Assembly: GCA_964016885.1 (NCBI GenBank)
Contig: OZ024740.1
Span: 317,006,001-317,070,000 of the forward strand
Source of the DNA: Eledone cirrhosa
Taxonomy: Eukaryota
Reading direction: 5' to 3'
Length of the DNA stretch: 64,000 nucleotides
How positions within the stretch are numbered: the stretch's first letter is position 1; each line of letters begins with the position of its first letter. Made by a program: the position numbers and the translations under genes. A model generated the notes under the pieces. That model made no database searches, was not told the DNA's origin, and saw only the letters and a program-made list of their open reading frames with translations. Below are positions 2,918 to 61,046 of this stretch, piece after piece.

Positions 2918-4060
2918 TAAATATTGTGTACAGTGCTCAGGTGCACTACAACTCATCAAAAAGTGTATGTACAGTACATAGGGCAATGCACAAACATCAG
3001 GAAAATGAACAGTGCACGAGTCATGATACACACAAGTGTGCATGTGTATGGAAGGGGTACATCAGGTGTAGTTTTGGCGTATTTCGGGAAGCATGAGTGT
3101 CTTAAAGGATGCAGTGTCTCGGCAGCTAACAACTGACGCAGGCAGTTTGTTCCATGCTTCAGCAACTCTGAGCGTGAAAAAATGTCTACGAAAGTCATGG
3201 GAGCTGTGCTGTTTTCTGATTTTGTAGGCATGTCCACGTGTGTTAGACACATGGAGATCAAAAAGGTGCTCAGGGTTGCAATTGGCGAGATGGTTAATAA
3301 CTTTGTGGGTATTTACCAAGTCCATTGCCAGACGTCGGAGCTTCAATGAATCCATGCCCAGGGAAGCAAGGCGTTCAGAGTATGGTAGGTGTCTGATGGA
3401 GGGTATGCGCTTGGTTGCACGTCTCTGAACAGTTTCCAGGAGGTCAATGTTCTGAGCAAGATAGGGGTTCCAGACGGATGATGCGAATTCCAAGTGTGGT
3501 CGTGCCATAGCTGTATATAGTTTTAAATAGATGGCTGGAGAGCGGCTAACAAAGGTCTTGCTGAGTGATGCCAAGACACCCTCGGCCTTCTTGACAATCT
3601 TAGAGACATGCTTTGTCCAACGCAAATCGCTGCTGACAATAATGCCCAGGTCACGTTCACAAGAGGACTTCTTGATATCAGTGTTGTGGAGGGAGTATGT
3701 GGATACTGGATTTTTCCTCCCAAAATGCATGGTGGTACACTTGTCCACAGCCAGCTTCAGTTGCCAGTCTGTGATCCATTGCTGCATTGTGTCCAGGTCT
3801 GATTGTAGGAAAGAGTTGTAGATTTCAGGATCAGTCCTTTTGATTTCAAGGTACAGCTTGATGTCATCTGCATATTTCAGTACTGTGGCATTCTTTAAGT
3901 TGGCGTCTATGTCATTAATATATGCCACAAACAAAAGGGGACCAAGAACAGATCCCTGTGGTACACCAGATGACATCTCATATGGTGAAGAATGCTGTCC
4001 TAGAACCGTCACTACTTCTTTTCGGCTGAGAATGAAGAATTTCAACCAGTCGAAAAGATC
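2779..4060 (-). mobile_element. 5'-truncated CR1/L2-group LINE (RT C-terminal half, 3' UTR partly duplicated)
   Basis: ORF 3062-4108(-) has GVPQGSVLGPLLF, YADD, MHFGRKNP, RPHLEFASSVWNP, TRGH and FFTLRV..WN.LP; (TTA)n tail at ~2885-2915; 3' UTR segment repeated at 2779-2883 and 2923-3027. Confidence 0.9.
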
Positions 4061-4742
4061 ATAATATACCACGTTATTACTAACAGCAGGATTATTATAA
4101 TATACCACAGTTATTACTAGCAGCAGGTTTATTATAATATACCACAGTTATTACTAGCAGCAGGATTATTATAATATACCGCAGTTATTACTAACAGCAG
4201 GATTATTATAATATACCACAGTTATTACTAACAGCAGGATTATTATAATATACCACAGTTATTACTAGCAGCAGGTTTATTATAATATACCACAGTTATT
4301 ACTAGCAGCAGGATTCTTATAATATACCACAGTTATTACTAGCAGCAGGTTTATTATAATATACCACAGTTATTACTAACAGCAGGATTATTATAATATA
4401 CCACAGTTATTACTAACAGCAGGTTTATTATAATATACCACAGTTATTACTAGCAGCAGGATTATTATAATATACCACAGTTATTACTAGCAGCAGGATT
4501 ATTATAATATACCACAGTTATTACTAGCAGCAGGTTTATTATAATATACCACAGTTATTACTAGCAGCAGGTTTATTATAATATACCACAGTTATTACTA
4601 GCAGCAGGATTATTATAATATACCACAGTTATTACTAACAGCAGGTTTATTATAATATACCACAGTTATTACTAACAGCAGGATTATTATAATATACCAC
4701 AGTTATTACTAACAGCAGATTTATTATAATATACCACAGTTT
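4060..4742. repeat. 39/40-bp minisatellite (~17 units)
   Basis: Unit ATAATATACCACAGTTATTACTA(A/G)CAGCAGG(A/T)TTATT; ~1.3 further units at 2700-2752. Confidence 0.95.
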
Positions 4743-7499: not shown

Positions 7500-8070
7500 A
7501 CAGGCTGCCTGAAATCTTCACCTATGAACCGGCTGTATATCCTGACAGACATAGCCCCACCAGAGATTCGACGAAGTGCAGCAATCAAGAAAAAGCATCA
7601 GCAACAGACTACAGATCAAAAACATCCTCTCTTTGGCCATGTGCCAACCAAAAGCTGCCTTAAATTCAAGAAAAGTTTCCTAAAGAGCATCACACCCCTT
7701 GGAACATCAACCATAAGTAGTGAAAGAGTCACTCGCTGGGAAGAAAAACATAACAACCTCCTATCTGTAACTACAATGGAGCTAAAGGTGAGTGAGGCAC
7801 TGCCCTCCTGGAGCAAATACAAACTATGCAGTGTAGAAATGCTTCAACAGATTAAGATCTGGTGTTGGACGTGCAAAAGTCACTCTTGAAAAATGGGAAT
7901 ATTTAAAGGATATTTAAAGGATGGGGACGTTGTGTGATTGCAGCATCGAACCACAGACTATGCAGCACCTCCTGATATTCCCCCTGCTCAAACACCCCAG
8001 CAGAGCATTGCACTTGGTAGTGTTTCATGAATAAGGAGAGCAATGTGTTCAGCTGTGGCAGAACCACATC
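7500..8070 (+). mobile_element. Degenerate C-terminal fragment of a non-LTR retrotransposon (I/Ingi-like group) with a CCHC-type knuckle remnant
   Basis: LYILTDIAPPEIRR, HPLFGH, LKFKKSFL, then out of frame LNRLRSGVGR and CDCSIEPQTMQHLL. Confidence 0.65.
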
Positions 8071-8105
8071 TAGATAAGCTTTGTAACTGACACTCTTGTG
8101 GACAC

Positions 8106-8372
8106 AAGAAGAAGCAACAACAACAACAACAACAACAACAACAGCAACAGCAACCGCAACAGGAAGAAGAAGAACAACAACAACAACAGGAAGAAGAAGA
8201 AGAAGAAGAAGAAGAACTACAACAACAACAGCAACCACAACAGGGAGAAGAAGAACAACAACAACAGCAGCAACAACAACAGGAAGAAGAAGAAGAAGAA
8301 GAAGAAGAAGAAGAAGAAGAAGAAGAAGAAGAAGAACAACAACAACAACAACAACAACAATAGCAACAACAG
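8106..8372. repeat. (AAC)n/(GAA)n compound microsatellite
   Basis: Direct reading. Confidence 0.92.
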
Positions 8373-8813
8373 GAATGGCTTCTAAAGTCTCCAATTTAGA
8401 CTGTTGGGTGGGGATTGGTGGTGTAGTAAATTTAATTGATCTCCATATTTTAATGTTACTTATTTTAATGATCAGTGACACATACACAATCACTTACAGA
8501 CACACATACACCGAGTCACACATACACAGTCACACACACACACATACACACACACACATCACACATACACAGTAACACACACACACACTCACATACACAC
8601 ACACACACACACACATCACTCATACACAGTAACACACACACACATCACACATACACAGTAACACACACACACACACACATCACTCACACACACATCACAC
8701 TCACACACACATCACACTCACATCACACATACACAGTAACACACACACACACACACTCACACACACATCACACTCACACACACATCACACTCACACACAC
8801 ATCACACATACAC

Positions 8814-9239: not shown

Positions 9240-10135
9240 AATAATAATAATGCTTTCTTTATTAACCACAAGGGTTTACACAAAGTAGACATTAAGGACA
9301 GTACAGGACAATACAGGACGGTACAAAAGGGCATTTCTGCATGTAAAAAAACAAAAAAACAGAGGATGTAATAATAGAACAATGAAAAAATTCCCCAATA
9401 GGGGGGGAGACTTCCGAGAGCCATCGTGGAGAAAGCCCATTAAAAAGCCACGGTGACCCTGACCACCAGGGCAATTGCCCTCTCCCAGTTTTCCACCTTC
9501 AATTTACAGGCATATACTCAGAGTATGTCCACTCACTCGGGCCAAACTTGCCTCTCTCACCCATATTTCAACAAAATGCTGGGAAGAGAGCACCTCCCTC
9601 TTTACCCTGATTTTCCTCTTCAAATGAAATTGAAAAAAGTTAATCAGGGCATCACCGAAGAGGTAAGTGCTCATCTTCAGCCCTTTCAGACGTGTCCACC
9701 ATACTATCTCTTTCGCCATGGCCACCAGACAGATAAAAACTGCCTGCCCTTCCTGGCTAAAGGAAGAGGGCGGGGCAATCCTCACAATGGACTCAGCTGA
9801 TAGTTGGATCCGTCCTACATGCGACAGCAGGTGTTCGACATAAACCCACAAGTCAGCAATGCTCGGACACTGGATGAGTGCATGCAGGACGGTTTCGTCG
9901 CCCTGCGCGCATCTCGGACATGCCTGGCTGACGGCACCTCCAAGCCTGTAGAGTTTATCCCGAACTGGCAAAGCTCCTCGGTAGCACTGCCAGGCCAGGG
10001 ATTTCTGGAAGTTGTCCATAGGCCCCGGCCCGAAAGTTCTTCCGAAGAGATTGGCTAGTTGATTTTTGTCGACGCCTAGAGTTTCCCCAAGTACGTCGTC
10101 GCTCTTCCCCATGACAAATCCCTGACCTATCTAGG
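9240..10135 (-). mobile_element. 5'-truncated L1/Tx1-clade LINE 3' end (zf-RVT region)
   Basis: ORF 9504-10112(-): LAWQCYRGALPVRDKL...CPRCAQGDETVLHALIQCP (Cx2Cx8Hx4C); 3' UTR with AATAAA and (ATT)n tail. Confidence 0.85.
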
Positions 10136-12540: not shown

Positions 12541-13452
12541 ATCATCATCATTTAACGTCCATCTTCCACGCTTGCATGGGTTTGGACGGGAGTTTTCCCA
12601 CTTGAGGCAAGAGTGGTTGTCTTGCTCGTATAGGACTGTCTGGCGGGTTTTCTACGGCTGGATGCCCTTCCTAACACCAACCACGTTTACAGTGTGGACT
12701 GGGAGGTTTTTACCATGTTACCTACACGGCCACATTACAGCGTGGACTGTGTGTTTTTTTGTTGTGACACCTACACAACCTCATTTGTTTCGGACTGGAT
12801 GTGGTACCAACATAACTTTACATTGAAAGGGGTGGTGTGGATGGGGTGGGGGTAGTGGTATGGGGGTGTATTTTGTTAGAGGTGCCTACTGACTGTAGTA
12901 GGTTTCACTTTGTACTTAGGTAAGGCGGGTCTTCTGTATTACTGTGTAGCGCCAAAGATCTCGGTCCAGTGACATTGTCTTGGAGAGGTGTAAGTGTGTG
13001 AGGTCGGAATTTATCAAGTCGTCCCAGGTTTTTCTGGGTCTGCCTACTCCGTGGCTACCGTCTATTTTTATTGCCCTGCACTTTTTTATACAGCTGTCGT
13101 CTTTCATGCACATCACGTGACCATACCAACGTAGTCTTCTCTCGAGTAAACAACATCTGATCCCTCTTATTTCTAATTTTTTCCTTAGTTCGTTTATGCT
13201 TTGCCGTTCACGTATATTACTATTACACATCCAGCGGAGCATGCAAACTTCGTTCCTCTCCAGTCTGTGTATATCCTCTGCACACAATGCCCAGGTCTCA
13301 CTGCCATGTAGCATTGCTGTTCGTATGCAGGCATCATACAGCCTGCGTTTCATTTTTAGAGAGAACCCTTTAGCGGCTAATAGTGGTATAAGCTCTCTGA
13401 ACTTTTTCCATCCAGTTCTGACTCTAGCTACTGTACTTTCAGAGCACCCTCC
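12541..13452 (-). mobile_element. 5'-truncated copy of the RTE family at 57.7-61.3 kb
   Basis: ORF 12916-13353(-) is nearly identical to the C-terminus of ORF 59826-61046; complete 3' UTR and (ATG) tail. Confidence 0.93.
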
Positions 13453-13977
13453 GTATATATACGATAAATAAACACAGCTTTAGAAGCTACAAGTTCCATT
13501 AGATGTTTAACCTTTTACTATTGTAAATATTTATACATAAAATATTAGCTAAAATCTATAAATATATCAAAGTATTGTTGCCTTGATGTGATAATCATTG
13601 ATTACCTACGAAGTAGTTCTATACAGAGATTTGATCTGATATATTGGTAAGTTCTCTTTTAAGGTTCTTGAATAGAAATTTAATTACATGCCAGTTTGAT
13701 TGAAGATTAAAAGAGTTTGATGAATTAAACATAGTTTTCCTGTGATCCAAAATGTTCATTTTTTTTTCTATTTATAAATAAATTTGGCACAAACTAAAAT
13801 CAACCATTTTATTTTTATTTTATTGCATGTCTTCTAAATTAATTGTGCAAGTGCAATGCTGTTTCATGGAATGGTGCCAGAATGAGCTGGTGTGTCCAAA
13901 GAATCAAGTTTTAAATAGATGTATCATAGAAATTCGATCAATAATTATATCACCCAGTAAGGAGCAGAGTTTGGTAT

Positions 13978-31510: not shown

Positions 31511-31802
31511 TTTCATGATAGAACTTGGGCCCATATAAAAAAAACAAAACATCCGATGTGCAACCTCGTAGGAAGCCAGCTAAACTTGCATAGTTGTAAG
31601 AAATAAATTTGATTTTCTCTCAGGCTAAGATCGGTTATACTAGAAAGAACTCAATACATGTTAGTTTGCAGAGTATATTTTATTTTGAATGTCGTTGTAA
31701 GGCTTATATTCACACACACACACACACAATATATAGATGCATGCTAGCGTGGAAGATGGACGTTAAACGAAGATGATGATGATGATATATATATATATCT
31801 TA

Positions 31803-31897
31803 ATATATGGTTTTATAAATATAGTTTCCATTTATTTAATATCATTGAATATTTACTCCAGTAAATGTTGAGTGCTCTAAATCAGTTATAAACATTT
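31803..31897 (+). repeat. Solo 3' end of the 36857-37315 fold-back family
   Basis: ATATGGTTTTATAAATATAGTTTC...TTGAGTGCT...ATCAGTTATAAA matches the reverse complement of 36895-36985. Confidence 0.7.
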
Positions 31898-32409
31898 ATA
31901 TATATGTCGGACTTCCACCCCCTTCTACTTATATCTTAATATATATTTCTAAACGTGTAATTGTATGTCCATTTCTCCCCCCTCCTCCTCATTTTTATGT
32001 AACAATTCTCCCAGCTCCTCTCTCCAGGTTCGCTGCTTTACTTATTTTCCCCATTACTCATTCTTTTTCATTTATCATTTGCTTTTTCTCTCTCACTATT
32101 TCTTCCTCTTTTATATTTCTCTTCTTTCTCACTCATATGACGTTACTAACAAATAGACGCTACTATTGTGCCGTTGTCATAAATGCTCTCTTTCTATCGC
32201 CGTTTATTTCTCTCTCTTTTATCTCCTTTCTCTCTCACCCACTCTCTACTTTGAAATAATTTCTTTTATCACCAGTTGCCTTTTAAACAATTTACCATAC
32301 ATTACAAGTTATTTAATTAAAAAGCAAAACACGGACAATATGTGTATGTACATACATACGTATATATGTAAATATGTATGTATATGTGGGTAGTGGGATA
32401 CCCACATAA

Positions 32410-36824: not shown

Positions 36825-36856
<32 letters not shown>

Positions 36857-36986
36857 GCAAAAGTTCTATTTAAATTGTTGGGATACAACAAGCAAATATT
36901 TTTATAACTGATATAAAGCACTCGACAAGTATTTGGAATAAATATACGATATTAACAAATAGAAACTATATTTATAAAACCATATT

Positions 36987-37051
36987 TATTTCATTATACA
37001 TATTTCAAGGATACCATGTTAAATTATGGTATGCCTTCATCAGACAAAATA
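36987..37051 (-). ncRNA. Type I minimal hammerhead ribozyme motif (mirror copy)
   Basis: Exact reverse complement of 37206-37270. Confidence 0.7.
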
Positions 37052-37205
37052 CAATATATACCAGTTTTATAAATAAACATTGACGTACCCTTTCAAAATG
37101 CAACCGTTACTTTTGGAAGACATCAGGATCCTGATGTCTTCCAAAAGTAACGGTTGCATTTTGAAAGGGTACGTCAATGTTTATTTATAAAACTGGTATA
37201 TATTG

Positions 37206-37270
37206 TATTTTGTCTGATGAAGGCATACCATAATTTAACATGGTATCCTTGAAATATGTATAATGAAATA
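37206..37270 (+). ncRNA. Type I minimal hammerhead ribozyme motif
   Basis: TATTTTGT-CTGATGA-AGGCATACCAT[AATTTAAC]ATGGTATCCTT-GAAAT-ATGT-ATA-ATGAAATA. Confidence 0.7.
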
Positions 37271-37310
37271 AATATGGTTTTATAAATATAGTTTCTATTT
37301 GTTAATATCG

Positions 37311-37344
<34 letters not shown>

Positions 37345-41634: not shown

Positions 41635-41851
41635 TCATCATCATCATCATCATCAACGTTTAACGTCCGTGTTCCACGCTTGCATGGGTTTGGACGGGGG
41701 TAGTCCCACTTGAGGCAAGAGTGATTGTCTTGCTCGCATAGGACTGTCTGGCAGGTTTTCTACAGTTGGATGCCCTATGTATATATATATATATATATGT
41801 GTGTGTGTATATATATATATATATGTGTGTGTGTGTATATATATATATATA

Positions 41852-41929: not shown

Positions 41930-42292
41930 TGTGTGTGTATGTATATATATATATATATGTGTGTGAGTATGTATATATATATATGTGTGTATGTATCATC
42001 ATCATCATCATCAGGTTTAGCGTCCGTGTTCCACGCTTGCATGGGTTTGGACGGGGGTTTTCCCACTTGAGGCAAGAGTGGTTGTCTTGCTCGCATAGGA
42101 CTGTCTGGCGGGTTTTCTACAGTTGGATGCCCTTCCTAACACCAACCACATTTACAGTGTGGGGCTGGGAGGTTTTTACCGTGTTGCCTACACGGCCACA
42201 TTACAGCGTGGACTGTCTGGCGGGTTTTCTACAGCTGGATGCCCTTCCTAACACCAACCACATTTACAGTGTGGGGCTGGGAGGTTTTTACC
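41635..42292 (-). mobile_element. Two RTE 3' UTR fragments separated by a TA/TG microsatellite
   Basis: 41655-41776 and 42014-42292, the latter with an internal duplication. Confidence 0.85.
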
Positions 42293-42387
42293 ATATATAT
42301 ATATATGTGTGTGTATGTATATATATATATATGTGTGTGTATATATATATATATGTGTATATATATATATGTGTGTATATATATATA

Positions 42388-42433
<46 letters not shown>

Positions 42434-42482
42434 AAATAAAGTTAAATAAAAGTCAAATGATTAAAATTTAGCTTCGTTTATT

Positions 42483-42537
42483 ACTGCTATATATATTTCA
42501 GTGACAGCCATCTTTGGCTGTGACCTCTTCAGGCAGT
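42483..42537 (-). ncRNA. Type I minimal hammerhead ribozyme motif (mirror copy)
   Basis: Exact reverse complement of 42766-42820. Confidence 0.82.
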
Positions 42538-42765
42538 TTGAATTAGTATGGTATAGACAAGTACATATGTTGTTTAGGTGTATGATATTGTCAATACTCT
42601 GATATGCCCAGTTCCTTGTTGGGTTGTTAATTCACTGGGGAACTGGAGTCATATATGTGAATTAACAGTGAATTAACAACCCAACAAGGAACTGGGCATA
42701 TCAGAGTATTGACAATATCATACACCTAAACAACATATGTACTTGTCTATACCATACTAATTCAA

Positions 42766-42820
42766 ACTGCCTGAAGAGGTCACAGCCAAAGATGGCTGTC
42801 ACTGAAATATATATAGCAGT
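42766..42820 (+). ncRNA. Type I minimal hammerhead ribozyme motif
   Basis: ACTGC-CTGAAGA-GGTCACAGCCA[AAGA]TGGCTGTCACT-GAAAT-ATAT-ATA-GCAGT; perfect 5-bp stem I, intact core, AATAAA immediately after. Confidence 0.82.
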
Positions 42821-42966
42821 AATAAACGAAGCTAAATTTTAATCATTTGACTTTTATTTAACTTTATTTTACACTACTCCGGAGTAACCAAACCAACCTG
42901 CGCACTTCGTCGAGTGCTCCAGCCTGCATACTGAGGTGTTGGTATACAACCAACATAAACTCAAAA

Positions 42967-44766
<1,800 letters not shown>

Positions 44767-57317: not shown

Positions 57318-57826
57318 ATATTTTAAATATATTTGTTATTTTTCAAACCCTTAATTCCCGGTCCTTAATATTCTTCTCCCCCTCCACCACACTCTACAAC
57401 ATGCGGTCACCCCCCCCCTCTCTCTCTCTCTATCCATATACATATATAAGATAAAGTAATTCACTTTCGCCAATTTGTGGCAGATTCTCATTCATGGTAA
57501 AATGTAATGTACTCATTTTTCTAGCTTTCTAACATCCGCTTATTCCATAGTCCTTCCAAACCTATTTCCTCCTGTATTTTCCAAAACAAATCTCTTGTAT
57601 TTTGTCCTGATTGTAAAATACGGAAGTTTTTGGCGTATTTTACTAAACAAATCTTGTATTTTTGTTTACGTTCGTTAAATACTAGGATCTAACTTAAACC
57701 TATTCTTCCCGCTAACAACTCAACACCCCTCCCTCCGGCCCCCACGCACCACCATTATTATCACGTGGACCAATCATAAGCCAGAGGCCTATACTATCGC
57801 TTACCTGGTCGCCTTCGGTATGTAGG

Positions 57827-59805
57827 ATGGAAGGACTACGGAGTTCCGGAGAGTTGAAGAGCGAAAAATCTGGACGCTCAGCGACAATGCCAAAGTTAAA
57901 GACAAACACACCTCGTGGACGAGAATGCGAGCATGCCTCTTTGTTTCGGCCGCGGATGGCTAACACAACCCCATCTCCCCCCGCTCCCCACCTTTCCCAC
58001 CCCCCAAACGCAATCCAAAACTTCAGATTTGGTACCTTGAATGTAGGCACCTTAAAGGGTCGCTCTAACGAGGTTGTAGAAATGCTTGAACGTAAGGAGG
58101 TCGATGTTTGTTGTATTCAAGAGACCAGGTGGAGGGGTGGATCTCCTAGATTCATTGTGGGTAGAAAACGATGCTATAAGCTTTTCTGGGTGGGAAATGA
58201 CAATGGGCTGGGTGGGGTAGGAATCATGGTAGAAGAAAAGTGGGCACATAAGATAATAGACGTAAATAGAGTGAACGACAGAATAATTAAAATAAGACTT
58301 GTCCTCAATAGAACCACGGTGACAGTAATATCCGTGTACGCACCCCAATCCGGACTGCCCAGCACTATAAAAGACAGATTCTACGAGACACTGATGCTCA
58401 CTACCTCCCAAATAACCGACAGTGACTATATAATTATTGCAGGCGACCTAAACGGTCACGTTGGACAACATTGTGACGGCTACGACGAAATCCATGGAGG
58501 CTATGGGTTTGGTACTAGAAATGAGGAAGGCTCCAGAATCCTGGAATTCTGTGACGCAAATAACCTAACTAACTGCAACACTAACTTCAAAAAACGAGAC
58601 AATCACTTGATCACCTACAGATCAGGGGAACATACCAGCCAGGTAGATTATATCCTTACCAGAAGACGTGACAAAGTGACTGTTGTAAACACTAAATCCC
58701 TCCCCCATGAAGAATGCACCTCCCAACATAGACTGATAATTAGCGACCTAATAGTCAGGACGAGACGTACTAGACAACAGAAGAGGACTACCCTCGGGAG
58801 AAAATTATGGAAGCTAAAGGACCCCACAGCCAAAAATAAATTCCAAAGCATATTACTTGATGCTTTCGACAGTAAGGAAGAGCAATTAGAGTCGTACAAG
58901 GTAGAGGAACAGTGGGAATTCCTGAAAGCAAACCTGCTGTTGGCGACAGACGAAGTCTGTGGCTGGAGCAGGCCTGTAGGCAGGAGGAGAGTAACATGGT
59001 GGTGGAACAGTAAGGTGGAGGGGTCAATTAAGGCCAAAAAGCAGGCTTGGAAAGTATGGCGGGATGGGGGAAGCAGAGAAGACTATCAAGTGGCCAGGAG
59101 GGAAGCTAGGAGACAAGTGTACTTCGCAAGAAGGGAAGCAGAGGAAAGAAAGTTCAAGCATGTTCTACAACGTGAGGACCAAAAACGTGAGGTGTTCAGG
59201 ATTGCTAGGCAATGTGTCAAGGAAAACAGTGATATTGTCGGGGAGAAGTGTGTACTTAACGATGACGGCGTACTTGCCATCACCGACGCCGATAAGAAGG
59301 TAGCTTGGAAGTGTCACTATGAAAGGCTACTAAATGAGGAGAATAAATGGGAGAAAGACAGTCTCCCCCACATCGACCCAATAGAGGGACCAGCAGTGTT
59401 AGTCGAGGGTAGTATAATAAGTAAGGCAATCAAAGATATGAAGACAGGCAAGGCGGCTGGGCCTTCGGAAATAGTTGCCGAGATGCTGAAGGCATCTGGT
59501 ACGGTGGGACACACCATGGTCACCCGGATAGTCAACCAAGTCATACAGAATGGGGTTGTTCCGAAGGACTGGCGTAGCAGCATCATCGTTAACTGTTATA
59601 ATGGTAAAGGAGATGCCCTAGATAGGAGTAACTATAGAGGCATTAAATTAATCGACCAGGTCATGAAGGTCACGGAAAAAGTAATAGCGCAACTAATCAG
59701 AGAGCGAATTGATCTAGTAGATGAAATGCAGTTCGGGTTTGTGTCAGGAAAAAGTACCACAGACGCTCTTTTCATTGTACGACAACTACAGGAGAAGTAC
59801 CTAGC
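57827..59805 (+). pseudogene. RTE ORF N-terminal part: apurinic-like endonuclease and start of RT
   Basis: GTLNVGTL, CCIQETRW, SVYAPQ, AGDLNGHVG, SQVDYIL, SQHRLI; NYRGIKL, QFGF, STTDALF. Confidence 0.93.
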
Positions 59806-61046
59806 TATACTTAGCTTTCGTCGACTTGGAGAAGGCCTTCGACAGAGTCCCCCATTCCATTATCTGGTGGGCTCTTAGAAAACTAGGTGTTGATGAATGG
59901 CTTGTGAGAGCTATACAAGCCATGTATAAAGAAACAGTCAGCAAGGTTAGAATTAACAACGAATATAGTGAAGAGTTTAGTGTAAAAGTTGGTGTTCATC
60001 AGGGATCTGTTCTTAGCCCCCTACTATTTATTATTGCCCTCCAGGCTATAACAGTGGAGTTCAAGACCGGCTGCCCATGGGAACTCCTATATGCAGATGA
60101 TCTAACGCTCATAGCTGAATCAATGGCCGAGCTAGAGAAGAAATTCCAAACATGGAAGCACGGCCTAGAATCAAAAGGCCTTAAAATTAACCTGGCTAAG
60201 ACTAAAGTTCTAGTTTGTAAGAAAGAAAATAAGGCACCAGTCCCATCCGGGAAGTGGCCATGCGCAGAGTGTAGGAAAGGCGTAGGTAGAAACTCCATTT
60301 TGTGTCCCAAATGCAAAGTTTGGGTGCATAAAAGATGTAGTGGTATCACAGGTAAGCTAACTAAGAACATAAATTTTACATGTGGCCGGTGTTCTGGGGC
60401 AGTAAGTAGCAGCAAGTGCCCACAAAATACTAGCTCTTTCAGCTGCGCAGAGGGTTCTATAGAAATAGTGGACAGCTTCCGTTACCTGGGTGACAAAATC
60501 AGCAGTGGGGGAGGGTGCTCTGAAAGTACAGTAGCTAGAGTCAGAACTGGGTGGAAAAAGTTCAGAGAGCTTATACCACTATTAGCCGCTAAAGGGTTCT
60601 CCCTAAAAATGAAAGGCAGGTTGTACGATGCCTGCATACGAACAGCAATGTTGCATGGCAGTGAGACCTGGGCATTGTGTGCAGAAGATATACGCAGACT
60701 AGAGAGAAACGAAGCTTGCATGCTCCGCTGGATGTGTAATAGTAATATACGTGAACGACAAAGCATAAACGAACTAAGGAAAAAATTAGAAATAAGAGGG
60801 ATCAGATGTTGTCTACTCGAGAGAAGGCTACGTTGGTATGGTCACGTAATGCGCATGAAGGACGATAGCTGTATAACAAAGTGCAGGGCAATAAAGATAG
60901 ACGGTAGCCACGGAATAGGCAGACCCAGAAAAACCTGGGATGAGCTGATAAACTCCGACCTCACACACTTACACCTCACCAAGACAATGTCACTGGACCG
61001 AGACCTTTGGCGGTACTCAGTAATAGAGAATACCCGCCTTACCTAA
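59806..61046 (+). pseudogene. RTE ORF C-terminal part: RT core, PHD-like insert, thumb
   Basis: AFVDLEKAFDRV, GVHQGSVLSPLLF, YADD, C4HC3 insert, FRYLG, LRWYGHVMR, GRPRKTW. Confidence 0.93.

Follow-up and report, generated by a model that had tools for sequence, protein, structure and literature searches.

The window analysed here, a stretch of 64,000 nt of Eledone cirrhosa DNA, carries between positions 42432 and 42966 two hammerhead ribozyme motifs on opposite strands of a perfect inverted repeat. The question is whether such a pair is a unit in its own right or has been left behind by something else. The first-pass annotation of this DNA described twin intact hammerheads and missed a truncated insertion of a Penelope-like element (PLE), one among thousands, the twin layout being a by-product of insertion. 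Judging from its sequence, the locus is almost certainly a PLE stub. We read it, with a probability of roughly 0.8, as a 5'-truncated, head-to-head PLE insertion in (TA)n, which likely arose by two primings and has a hammerhead in each arm since each arm is a copy of the pLTR.

The inverted repeat is as perfect as had been claimed: its arms, 42432-42637 and 42666-42871, are complementary at 206 of 206 bases and are separated by 28 nt. The minus-strand arm extends over 17 of these 28 bases (42638-42654), hence the true junction insert is only 11 nt long (42655-42665); its last 9 nt duplicate 42668-42676. Arm 1 (42432-42654, minus strand) comprises the last 223 nt of the PLE, that is, the 3' UTR end / pLTR, and is 98.2% identical to the 3' end of the full-length copy L033, while arm 2 (42666-42871, plus strand) comprises 206 nt of the pLTR and is 98.5% identical to L033. 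The outer terminus of arm 1 is the pLTR end (denoted E1), followed by (TA)n, whereas arm 2 continues into a tail of 95 nt (42872-42966, plus strand), which terminates at the other end, E2, and in tandem copies is located after the pLTR and before the ORF. Both arms abut (TA)n: the left flank (42293-42431) and the right flank (42967-44000, extending past 44000) are (TA)n/(TG)n microsatellite, the insertion target. The breakpoint of arm 1 lies within a CATATG palindrome, the commonest junction site of this PLE family. The copy itself has no ORF. In addition, a repeated short element starting after (CAT)n occurs in several copies in the window (41636-41770; 41996-42290), directly left of the locus, and fragments of LINE-type ORFs with endonuclease and RT-like motifs, recognised by eye, are found at 57716-61046 (a copy spanning two frames), 12916-13479, 3062-4147, and 9504-10130.

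The identical arms had been taken as a sign of a young insertion. The insertion is indeed young: over 145 nt, each arm agrees throughout with the letters that are commonest in the abundant subfamily (0 differences, the mean being 1.79). Arm identity, by contrast, is a poor measure of age, since of 40 arm pairs 18 are identical, compared with 17% when pairs are drawn at random from one subfamily, and rare variants are common to both arms in 7 of the 40. Arms within a unit are thus more alike than random copies, which fits a single template or later homogenisation. The expectation that a read-through transcript would form ∼200 bp of dsRNA is borne out by modelling, as the 440-nt hairpin (folding of 42432-42877) has a predicted energy of -358.9 kcal/mol, and it is physically plausible that such a hairpin would mask the ribozyme.

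Both hammerheads are of the minimal type I. The one in arm 2 occupies 42766-42820 on the plus strand, with the predicted cut at 42815/42816, and its mirror in arm 1 occupies 42483-42537 on the minus strand, with the predicted cut between 42488 and 42487. On the plus strand, a 5-bp stem I is formed by ACTGC (42766-42770) and GCAGT (42816-42820), the core consists of CTGAAGA (42771-42777) and GAAA (42804-42807), stem II (GGT-C-ACAGCCA / TGGCTGT-C-ACT) has 3 bp, a C x C mismatch and 7 bp, and TATATATA (42808-42815) provides a stem III of 2 bp with a palindromic AUAU loop. The register and the cut site, both proposed previously, fit the sequence and the PLE literature (excerpts of PMC4209133). The core CUGANGA and GAAA, U16.1, H17, and stems I and II are present in both arms. 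In this respect the hammerheads are intact, as had been stated, but the highly conserved (though not universal) G10.1-C11.1 pair is replaced by G·U at the locus. AATAAA (42821-42826, plus strand) directly follows the hammerhead; AATAAA or ATTAAA is found after it in most sister families seen. The Rfam search yielded no match at the gathering score anywhere in the window and no hammerhead family among the 19 matches listed up to E 10 in 42400-43000; the below-threshold matches at the locus were generic hairpins (miRNA-type) only.

According to the folding model, the active monomer fold has a probability of 0.0005 and the stem III pairs have probabilities of 0.13-0.15, while in a cofold of two copies the palindrome AUAUAUAU forms a self-duplex (8 bp, -3.2 kcal/mol). 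Of the earlier suggestion that a single-arm transcript could cleave itself, possibly as a dimer through the palindromic loop, the dimer fits the sequence and the PLE literature; in the model the monomer would rarely adopt the active fold. The low probability of the monomer fold and the pairing through AUAUAUAU agree with the weak, dimer-only activity of metazoan PLE hammerheads described in excerpts of PMC4209133; as in the hammerheads reported there, stem I is short, stem II is long, stem III is palindromic and unstable, and dimers would be expected. The same excerpts mention Schistosoma hammerhead pairs lying 100-700 bp apart on opposite strands. Loop III (42808-42815) consists of (TA)4 and thus has the sequence into which the element inserts; a (TA)4 loop III is common to the sister families picked by the sister-family pattern described below.

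In the genome, which comprises 2,996 Mb, we found 3,919, 2,933, and 5,580 exact matches to three 23-25-mers of the arm (the first being its 25-nt head), and 0 matches to the controls; these counts are of arms, not insertions. Given the 3,919 matches versus 0 for the reversed control, as well as the covariation in sister families considered below, the hammerhead arm is not a chance occurrence. Long copies have the order pLTR with tail, ORF, ∼1.3 kb of 3' UTR, pLTR, and (TA)n. The unit length is 4,053 nt in L033, and partial tandems forming pLTRs were found in L031, L033, and L037. Uninterrupted frames comprise 894 and 893 codons in L214 and L216, respectively, with 892 aa from the first Met in L214, and several of the 150 scored endonuclease matches are in frames of 814-894 codons. 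The L214 protein has RT motifs as well as a GIY-YIG-type domain at its C-terminus (VYG..YIG, R, H, E, N), identified by eye. Pfam gave no family at cut-off for the ORF, and RT and GIY-YIG were called from motifs and from homology by eye; the ORF has 43 homologues, with the two named ones coming from cephalopods. An ORF, pLTR tandems, an inverted truncated copy with a tail, and a hammerhead are all present, and the element is an EN+ PLE. Beside two tandem copies of the family, L036 carries at 7844-8501 an RT fragment of a more distant PLE family. Read runs X5 and X6 (organisms B and C) contain 66-69% of the arm's words, but yield only 1 and 4 contigs; two of these are identical to the window over 196-223 nt, reflecting either low-level carry-over or a true related family.

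The Hydra clade of C-terminal EN+ PLEs is described in the available part of PMC8557442 by RWK, DKG replaced with DKT, CxCx5C, CxxC and CxH by the conserved E and N, and the absence of CCHH. The L214 protein has RWK in IRRMRWKAF, DKT in HADKTNN, a CxCx5C linker CNCRNPESC preceded by a low-complexity insert, CKLC as CxxC, and CRH as CxH; it lacks CCHH, with only one cysteine between VY and YIG. Compared by eye, it follows Hydra-1_Obim motif by motif. Like our element, the clade, of which Hydra-1_Obim and Penelope-13_HM are examples (Craig et al., 2021, PMC8557442, in part), has the (TA)n target and a hammerhead near the 3' end. Penelope-13_HM is moreover listed with a 5'-truncated inverted copy, with hammerheads on both strands and, as at the locus, with pairing of the G·U type at 10.1-11.1. 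On the other hand, Hydra elements in the same part of that paper are generally <3 kb, a tendency and not a strict rule, versus a unit of 4.05 kb and 892 aa here, and their hammerheads have a loop III of the AC..GT type instead of TA repeats. Further differences from Hydra families are stem II with 3+7 bp and a C x C mismatch, the 95-nt tail, and the number of hammerheads, which runs to tens of thousands when the sister families are taken together. All features of the Hydra clade that were examined, save length, are present, and the element would be assigned to it by motifs and comparison by eye.

Two other affiliations were rejected. Naiad elements have an N-terminal EN and no canonical hammerhead, as far as the available part of PMC8557442 goes, whereas here the endonuclease is C-terminal and the hammerhead is present. 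Non-LTR retrozymes are defined, in excerpts of bioRxiv 10.64898/2026.07.22.740005, as short non-coding tandem monomers with a hammerhead each, whereas our arms have opposite orientations and belong to an element that goes on to carry an ORF.

In order to describe the ends of insertions, we count positions from 42766 as 0, which places the predicted cut between +49 and +50, E1 at +105 (window 42432 and 42871), and E2, the end of the 95-nt tail, at about +200 to +207 (window 42966). We mapped 124 stretches, namely the matches listed first on contig C1 (to ∼110 Mb) and the window; being picked by exact motifs, this sample favours young copies. The 124 stretches listed contain 80 inverted junctions: 65 combine E1 with E2, 2 were scored as E1+E1, none as E2+E2, and 13 have an arm ending elsewhere. 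On hand reading, L165 proved to be E1+E2 and L038 to end 6 nt into the tail, bringing E1+E2 to 66 of the 67 listed inverted junctions with classifiable ends; already the scored 65 of 67 are incompatible with a 50:50 expectation (P = 1.5e-17). The 54 lone arms in the same stretches end at E2 (23), at E1 (22), or elsewhere or at the stretch edge (9). Among the 30 shortest junctions of the genome, the script reported E1+E2 in 29, and the sole E2+E2 (L264) is E2+E1 on reading; L256, L257, and L270 have atypical ends.

Runs of (TA)4 or more flank both ends in 63 of the 65 E1+E2 units and at least one end in all 65. A hammerhead is present in both arms of 46 units, and 35 are short twins like the locus. 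The arms overlap by at least 1 nt at 36 junctions, 4 are blunt, and 25 have an insert; an overlap of 8 nt is seen at 9 junctions, most of them located in the TCATATGA palindrome near -117, which is also where arm 1 of the locus breaks off. Of the two arms, E1 is the longer one in 34 units and E2 in 9, and 22 junctions are symmetric within 10 nt; in 10 units the E2 arm is the tail only, sharing nothing with the other arm. The window contains another example, a sister-family stub at 36855-37315 with a perfect 187-bp palindrome (36942-37128 / 37129-37315), hammerheads at 37209-37267 (plus strand) and in the mirror position, one G in loop III, and the tail on the minus arm, again of the E1+E2 build. 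A lone truncated copy at ∼31795-31930 consists of the pLTR end and tail of an AT-rich sister family and has no hammerhead.

Sister families have common motifs in the tail (42875-42880, 42909-42918, 42950-42955). Together, the tail of the locus (42872-42966) and the tails of L220-L248 have 22 invariant columns in 16 sequences from families that otherwise share little. From this conservation, the motifs may be proposed as a candidate binding or start signal for RT. Support for a tail structure is weak, amounting to 8 weak pairs, one of them with a two-sided change. Published PLE tails are 30-40 nt, versus 95 nt here.

These data bear on the idea that the twin is a non-autonomous element of its own, a MITE-like or fold-back DNA transposon or a retrozyme, amplifying as a fixed unit. 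Many copies are near-identical in size, which could suggest such an element, yet this similarity is owing to the junction hot spot. Copies vary in their junctions and in the length of their arms, which ranges from <60 nt to >4 kb, the unequal ends E1 and E2 mean that there is no terminal inverted repeat, the arms run on into the PLE ORF, and the 124 stretches showed no short monomers with a hammerhead arranged in tandem. We find this idea hardly credible.

Inverted 5'-truncated copies and a tail often at one end are known for PLEs (PMC8557442, PMC3846280; parts of both). The pairing of E1 with E2 favours two target-primed reverse transcriptions with subsequent joining by microhomology, and double target-primed reverse transcription, one from each side of the cut, is probably the way in which our insertion formed. 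The element protein would cut both strands of (TA)n, and each target 3' end would prime cDNA on a tandem element RNA, one at E1 and the other at E2. Both cDNAs would pass through the uncut hammerhead and stop early, and a short microhomology would then serve to join them, the most frequent site being the TCATATGA palindrome, which lies ∼117 nt upstream of the hammerhead. The arms are antisense when read inwards from the flank, as expected of target-primed cDNA. The hammerhead itself would cut slowly, as a dimer or with the help of a protein, in tandem sense transcripts of full-length copies. In the stub it would be a passenger, and read-through RNA would fold into the 206-bp hairpin, burying it.

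In L1 twin priming, the element RNA is copied from two target 3' ends, and microhomology joins the two cDNAs, producing an inversion. L1 inversions are not known to overlap, and they start at the poly(A) tail, whereas the arms here overlap and start at two fixed internal sites, without poly(A). Likeness is also seen in excerpts of the in vitro study of Poseidon_Ac (Frangieh et al., 2024, PMC11167929), where both strands of an AT-rich target are cut and extended, as we infer here, two internal start sites bound the tail, and hammerhead cleavage is not needed for insertion. According to the same excerpts, Poseidon_Ac belongs to another clade and has a hammerhead that overlaps the start of the ORF and a tail of 30-40 nt, and its start sites are alike on both strands, whereas here a unit almost always uses different sites.

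The same element could also have acquired its inverted arm by self-priming (fold-back) at a palindrome, either of an antisense template or of the first cDNA, after which the endonuclease would have trimmed one of the arms to E1. In the available parts of the respective papers, self-priming has been proposed for rotifer PLEs (PMC3846280), and the tail has been ascribed to endonuclease resolution (PMC8557442). In our sample, self-priming on the antisense template fits 56 of the 65 units, and the 8-nt overlaps at 9 of 65 junctions, most of them at the TCATATGA palindrome, the 22 symmetric junctions, the 34 units with the longer E1 arm, and the rare variants shared in 7 of 40 arm pairs all speak for it. 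However, in a fold-back one arm is copied from its partner, and so one arm class should always reach further upstream. Both directions are seen, and the lead of the E2 arm is as large as 2.7 kb (L035) and 1.6 kb (L119). As E1 is longer in 34 units, E2 is longer in 9, and E2 is tail-only in 10, there is no class of arm that is in every case copied from the other; the 10 units with a tail-only E2 arm, together with the longer E1 arms, exclude fold-back of a single cDNA. Hence we regard self-priming as unlikely. Still, several points count against double priming. Its basis is the patterns of ends and a protein of the Poseidon clade; self-priming, too, would account for the 34:9 excess of longer E1 arms and for the palindrome as a hot spot of junctions; and 13 of the 80 junctions could be assigned to no class.

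A further version of double priming is an asymmetric integration complex that would start from the pLTR end on behalf of one target strand but from the tail end on behalf of the second, both on one RNA, guided by the conserved 95-nt tail, with junctions at +49 to +51 in 10 of the 30 shortest events recording templates cut in vivo. We offer it tentatively, as a possibility with the odds against it. Templates seem to be mostly uncut, because post-cut ends joined to (TA)6 are few (39 copies with (TA)6 directly before the post-cut sequence versus 5,580 matches of this sequence) and because the 95 nt upstream are kept without indels in 85 of 100 copies chosen on the post-cut 25-mer. The 30 shortest inverted junctions have 60 arm ends, of which 25 are located at +49 to +51, including both arms in 10 events, with L268 counted in this set by hand for a point change in both arms. 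The cluster comprises 10 of the 16 near-symmetric events (P = 1.4e-4 versus a flat diagonal), but the control window equals it: at -1 to -15, by hand tally, 10 of 16 near-symmetric events (42 events in all) fall in a 3-nt bin without a predicted cut. As the pile-up of junctions at the cut site is matched by the control, it does not demonstrate cleavage in vivo. The same junction test gave 0 events in a second family and 140 in a third, where the 50 events listed are spread and too AT-rich to place.

Conservation provides another view of activity. The sister-family pattern matched 28,036 further hammerheads of the same layout in the genome (control 23), which together with the 5,580 matches above makes >33,000 related motifs as exact pattern matches; the pattern includes the core itself. 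In 14 sister-family hammerheads, stems I and II covary, with two-sided changes in 13 of 16 pairs and 90.6% of cells paired; none of 500 shuffles reached the covariation score, a figure inflated by the relatedness of the sequences. The C x C mismatch of stem II is kept across these hammerheads as well. The covarying stems and the kept mismatch imply that the fold is selected at the family level, and ribozyme activity of the PLE family is quite likely.

Individual copies are different. Among 85 copies chosen without the core in the search pattern, 70 keep it, and in the abundant subfamily the core varies as often as the flanks (7/671 vs. 30/2,318, P = 0.70). An apparently lower core variation (P = 0.01) was discarded, as most arms had been found by a core-containing pattern and the unbiased set shows no difference. 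None of the 13 common variants in assembled read contigs, which do not reach across the junction, is at core positions, and the core is changed in both arms of two pairs, L055 and L066. The first-pass annotation had made core conservation among genomic copies a test of its reading; the fold covaries across families, but in single copies the core has no protection. Position 11.1 is U in 125 of 125 arms of the locus's subfamily and C in 12 of 21 arms of a more diverged one; in read run X1, C accounts for ∼41% of depth at this position. The subfamilies differ at 42764-42765 and 42803; each of the two differences costs the locus's subfamily a CpG, and their effect is to weaken pair 10.1-11.1 as well as a stretch by which stem I might be extended.

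The twin-hammerhead hairpin could finally be a regulatory unit at this locus, switching between a masked dsRNA and a single-arm form that cleaves itself. In favour of this are the high stability of the hairpin, a core that is unaltered in either arm, and the loop III palindrome, which can form the 8-bp duplex of -3.2 kcal/mol. The same short twin form, however, makes up 35 of the 65 sampled inverted units, the core is no less variable than the flanks and has changed in both arms of L055 and L066, and the surroundings are microsatellite and LINE fragments. A regulatory unit is thus highly improbable, and a function of this locus of any kind very unlikely.

The locus is real, young, and ordinary for PLEs: twin hammerheads on opposite strands, the inverted 5' copy, the one-sided tail, and cleavage as a dimer have all been published for these elements. 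This family, the conserved 95-nt tail, and a count of the E1+E2 rule were not found in the literature considered, subscription papers being outside its scope; the parts of PLE papers available state the rule in qualitative terms ("often at one end"). As the >33,000 related motifs illustrate, a perfect hairpin containing hammerheads is routine debris in this genome. The family that produced this one is young, its ORFs are uninterrupted, its copies number in the thousands and follow the E1+E2 rule almost without exception, and it is a test bed for the origin of inverted ends and the one-sided tail, and for the cutting by pLTR hammerheads in vivo.
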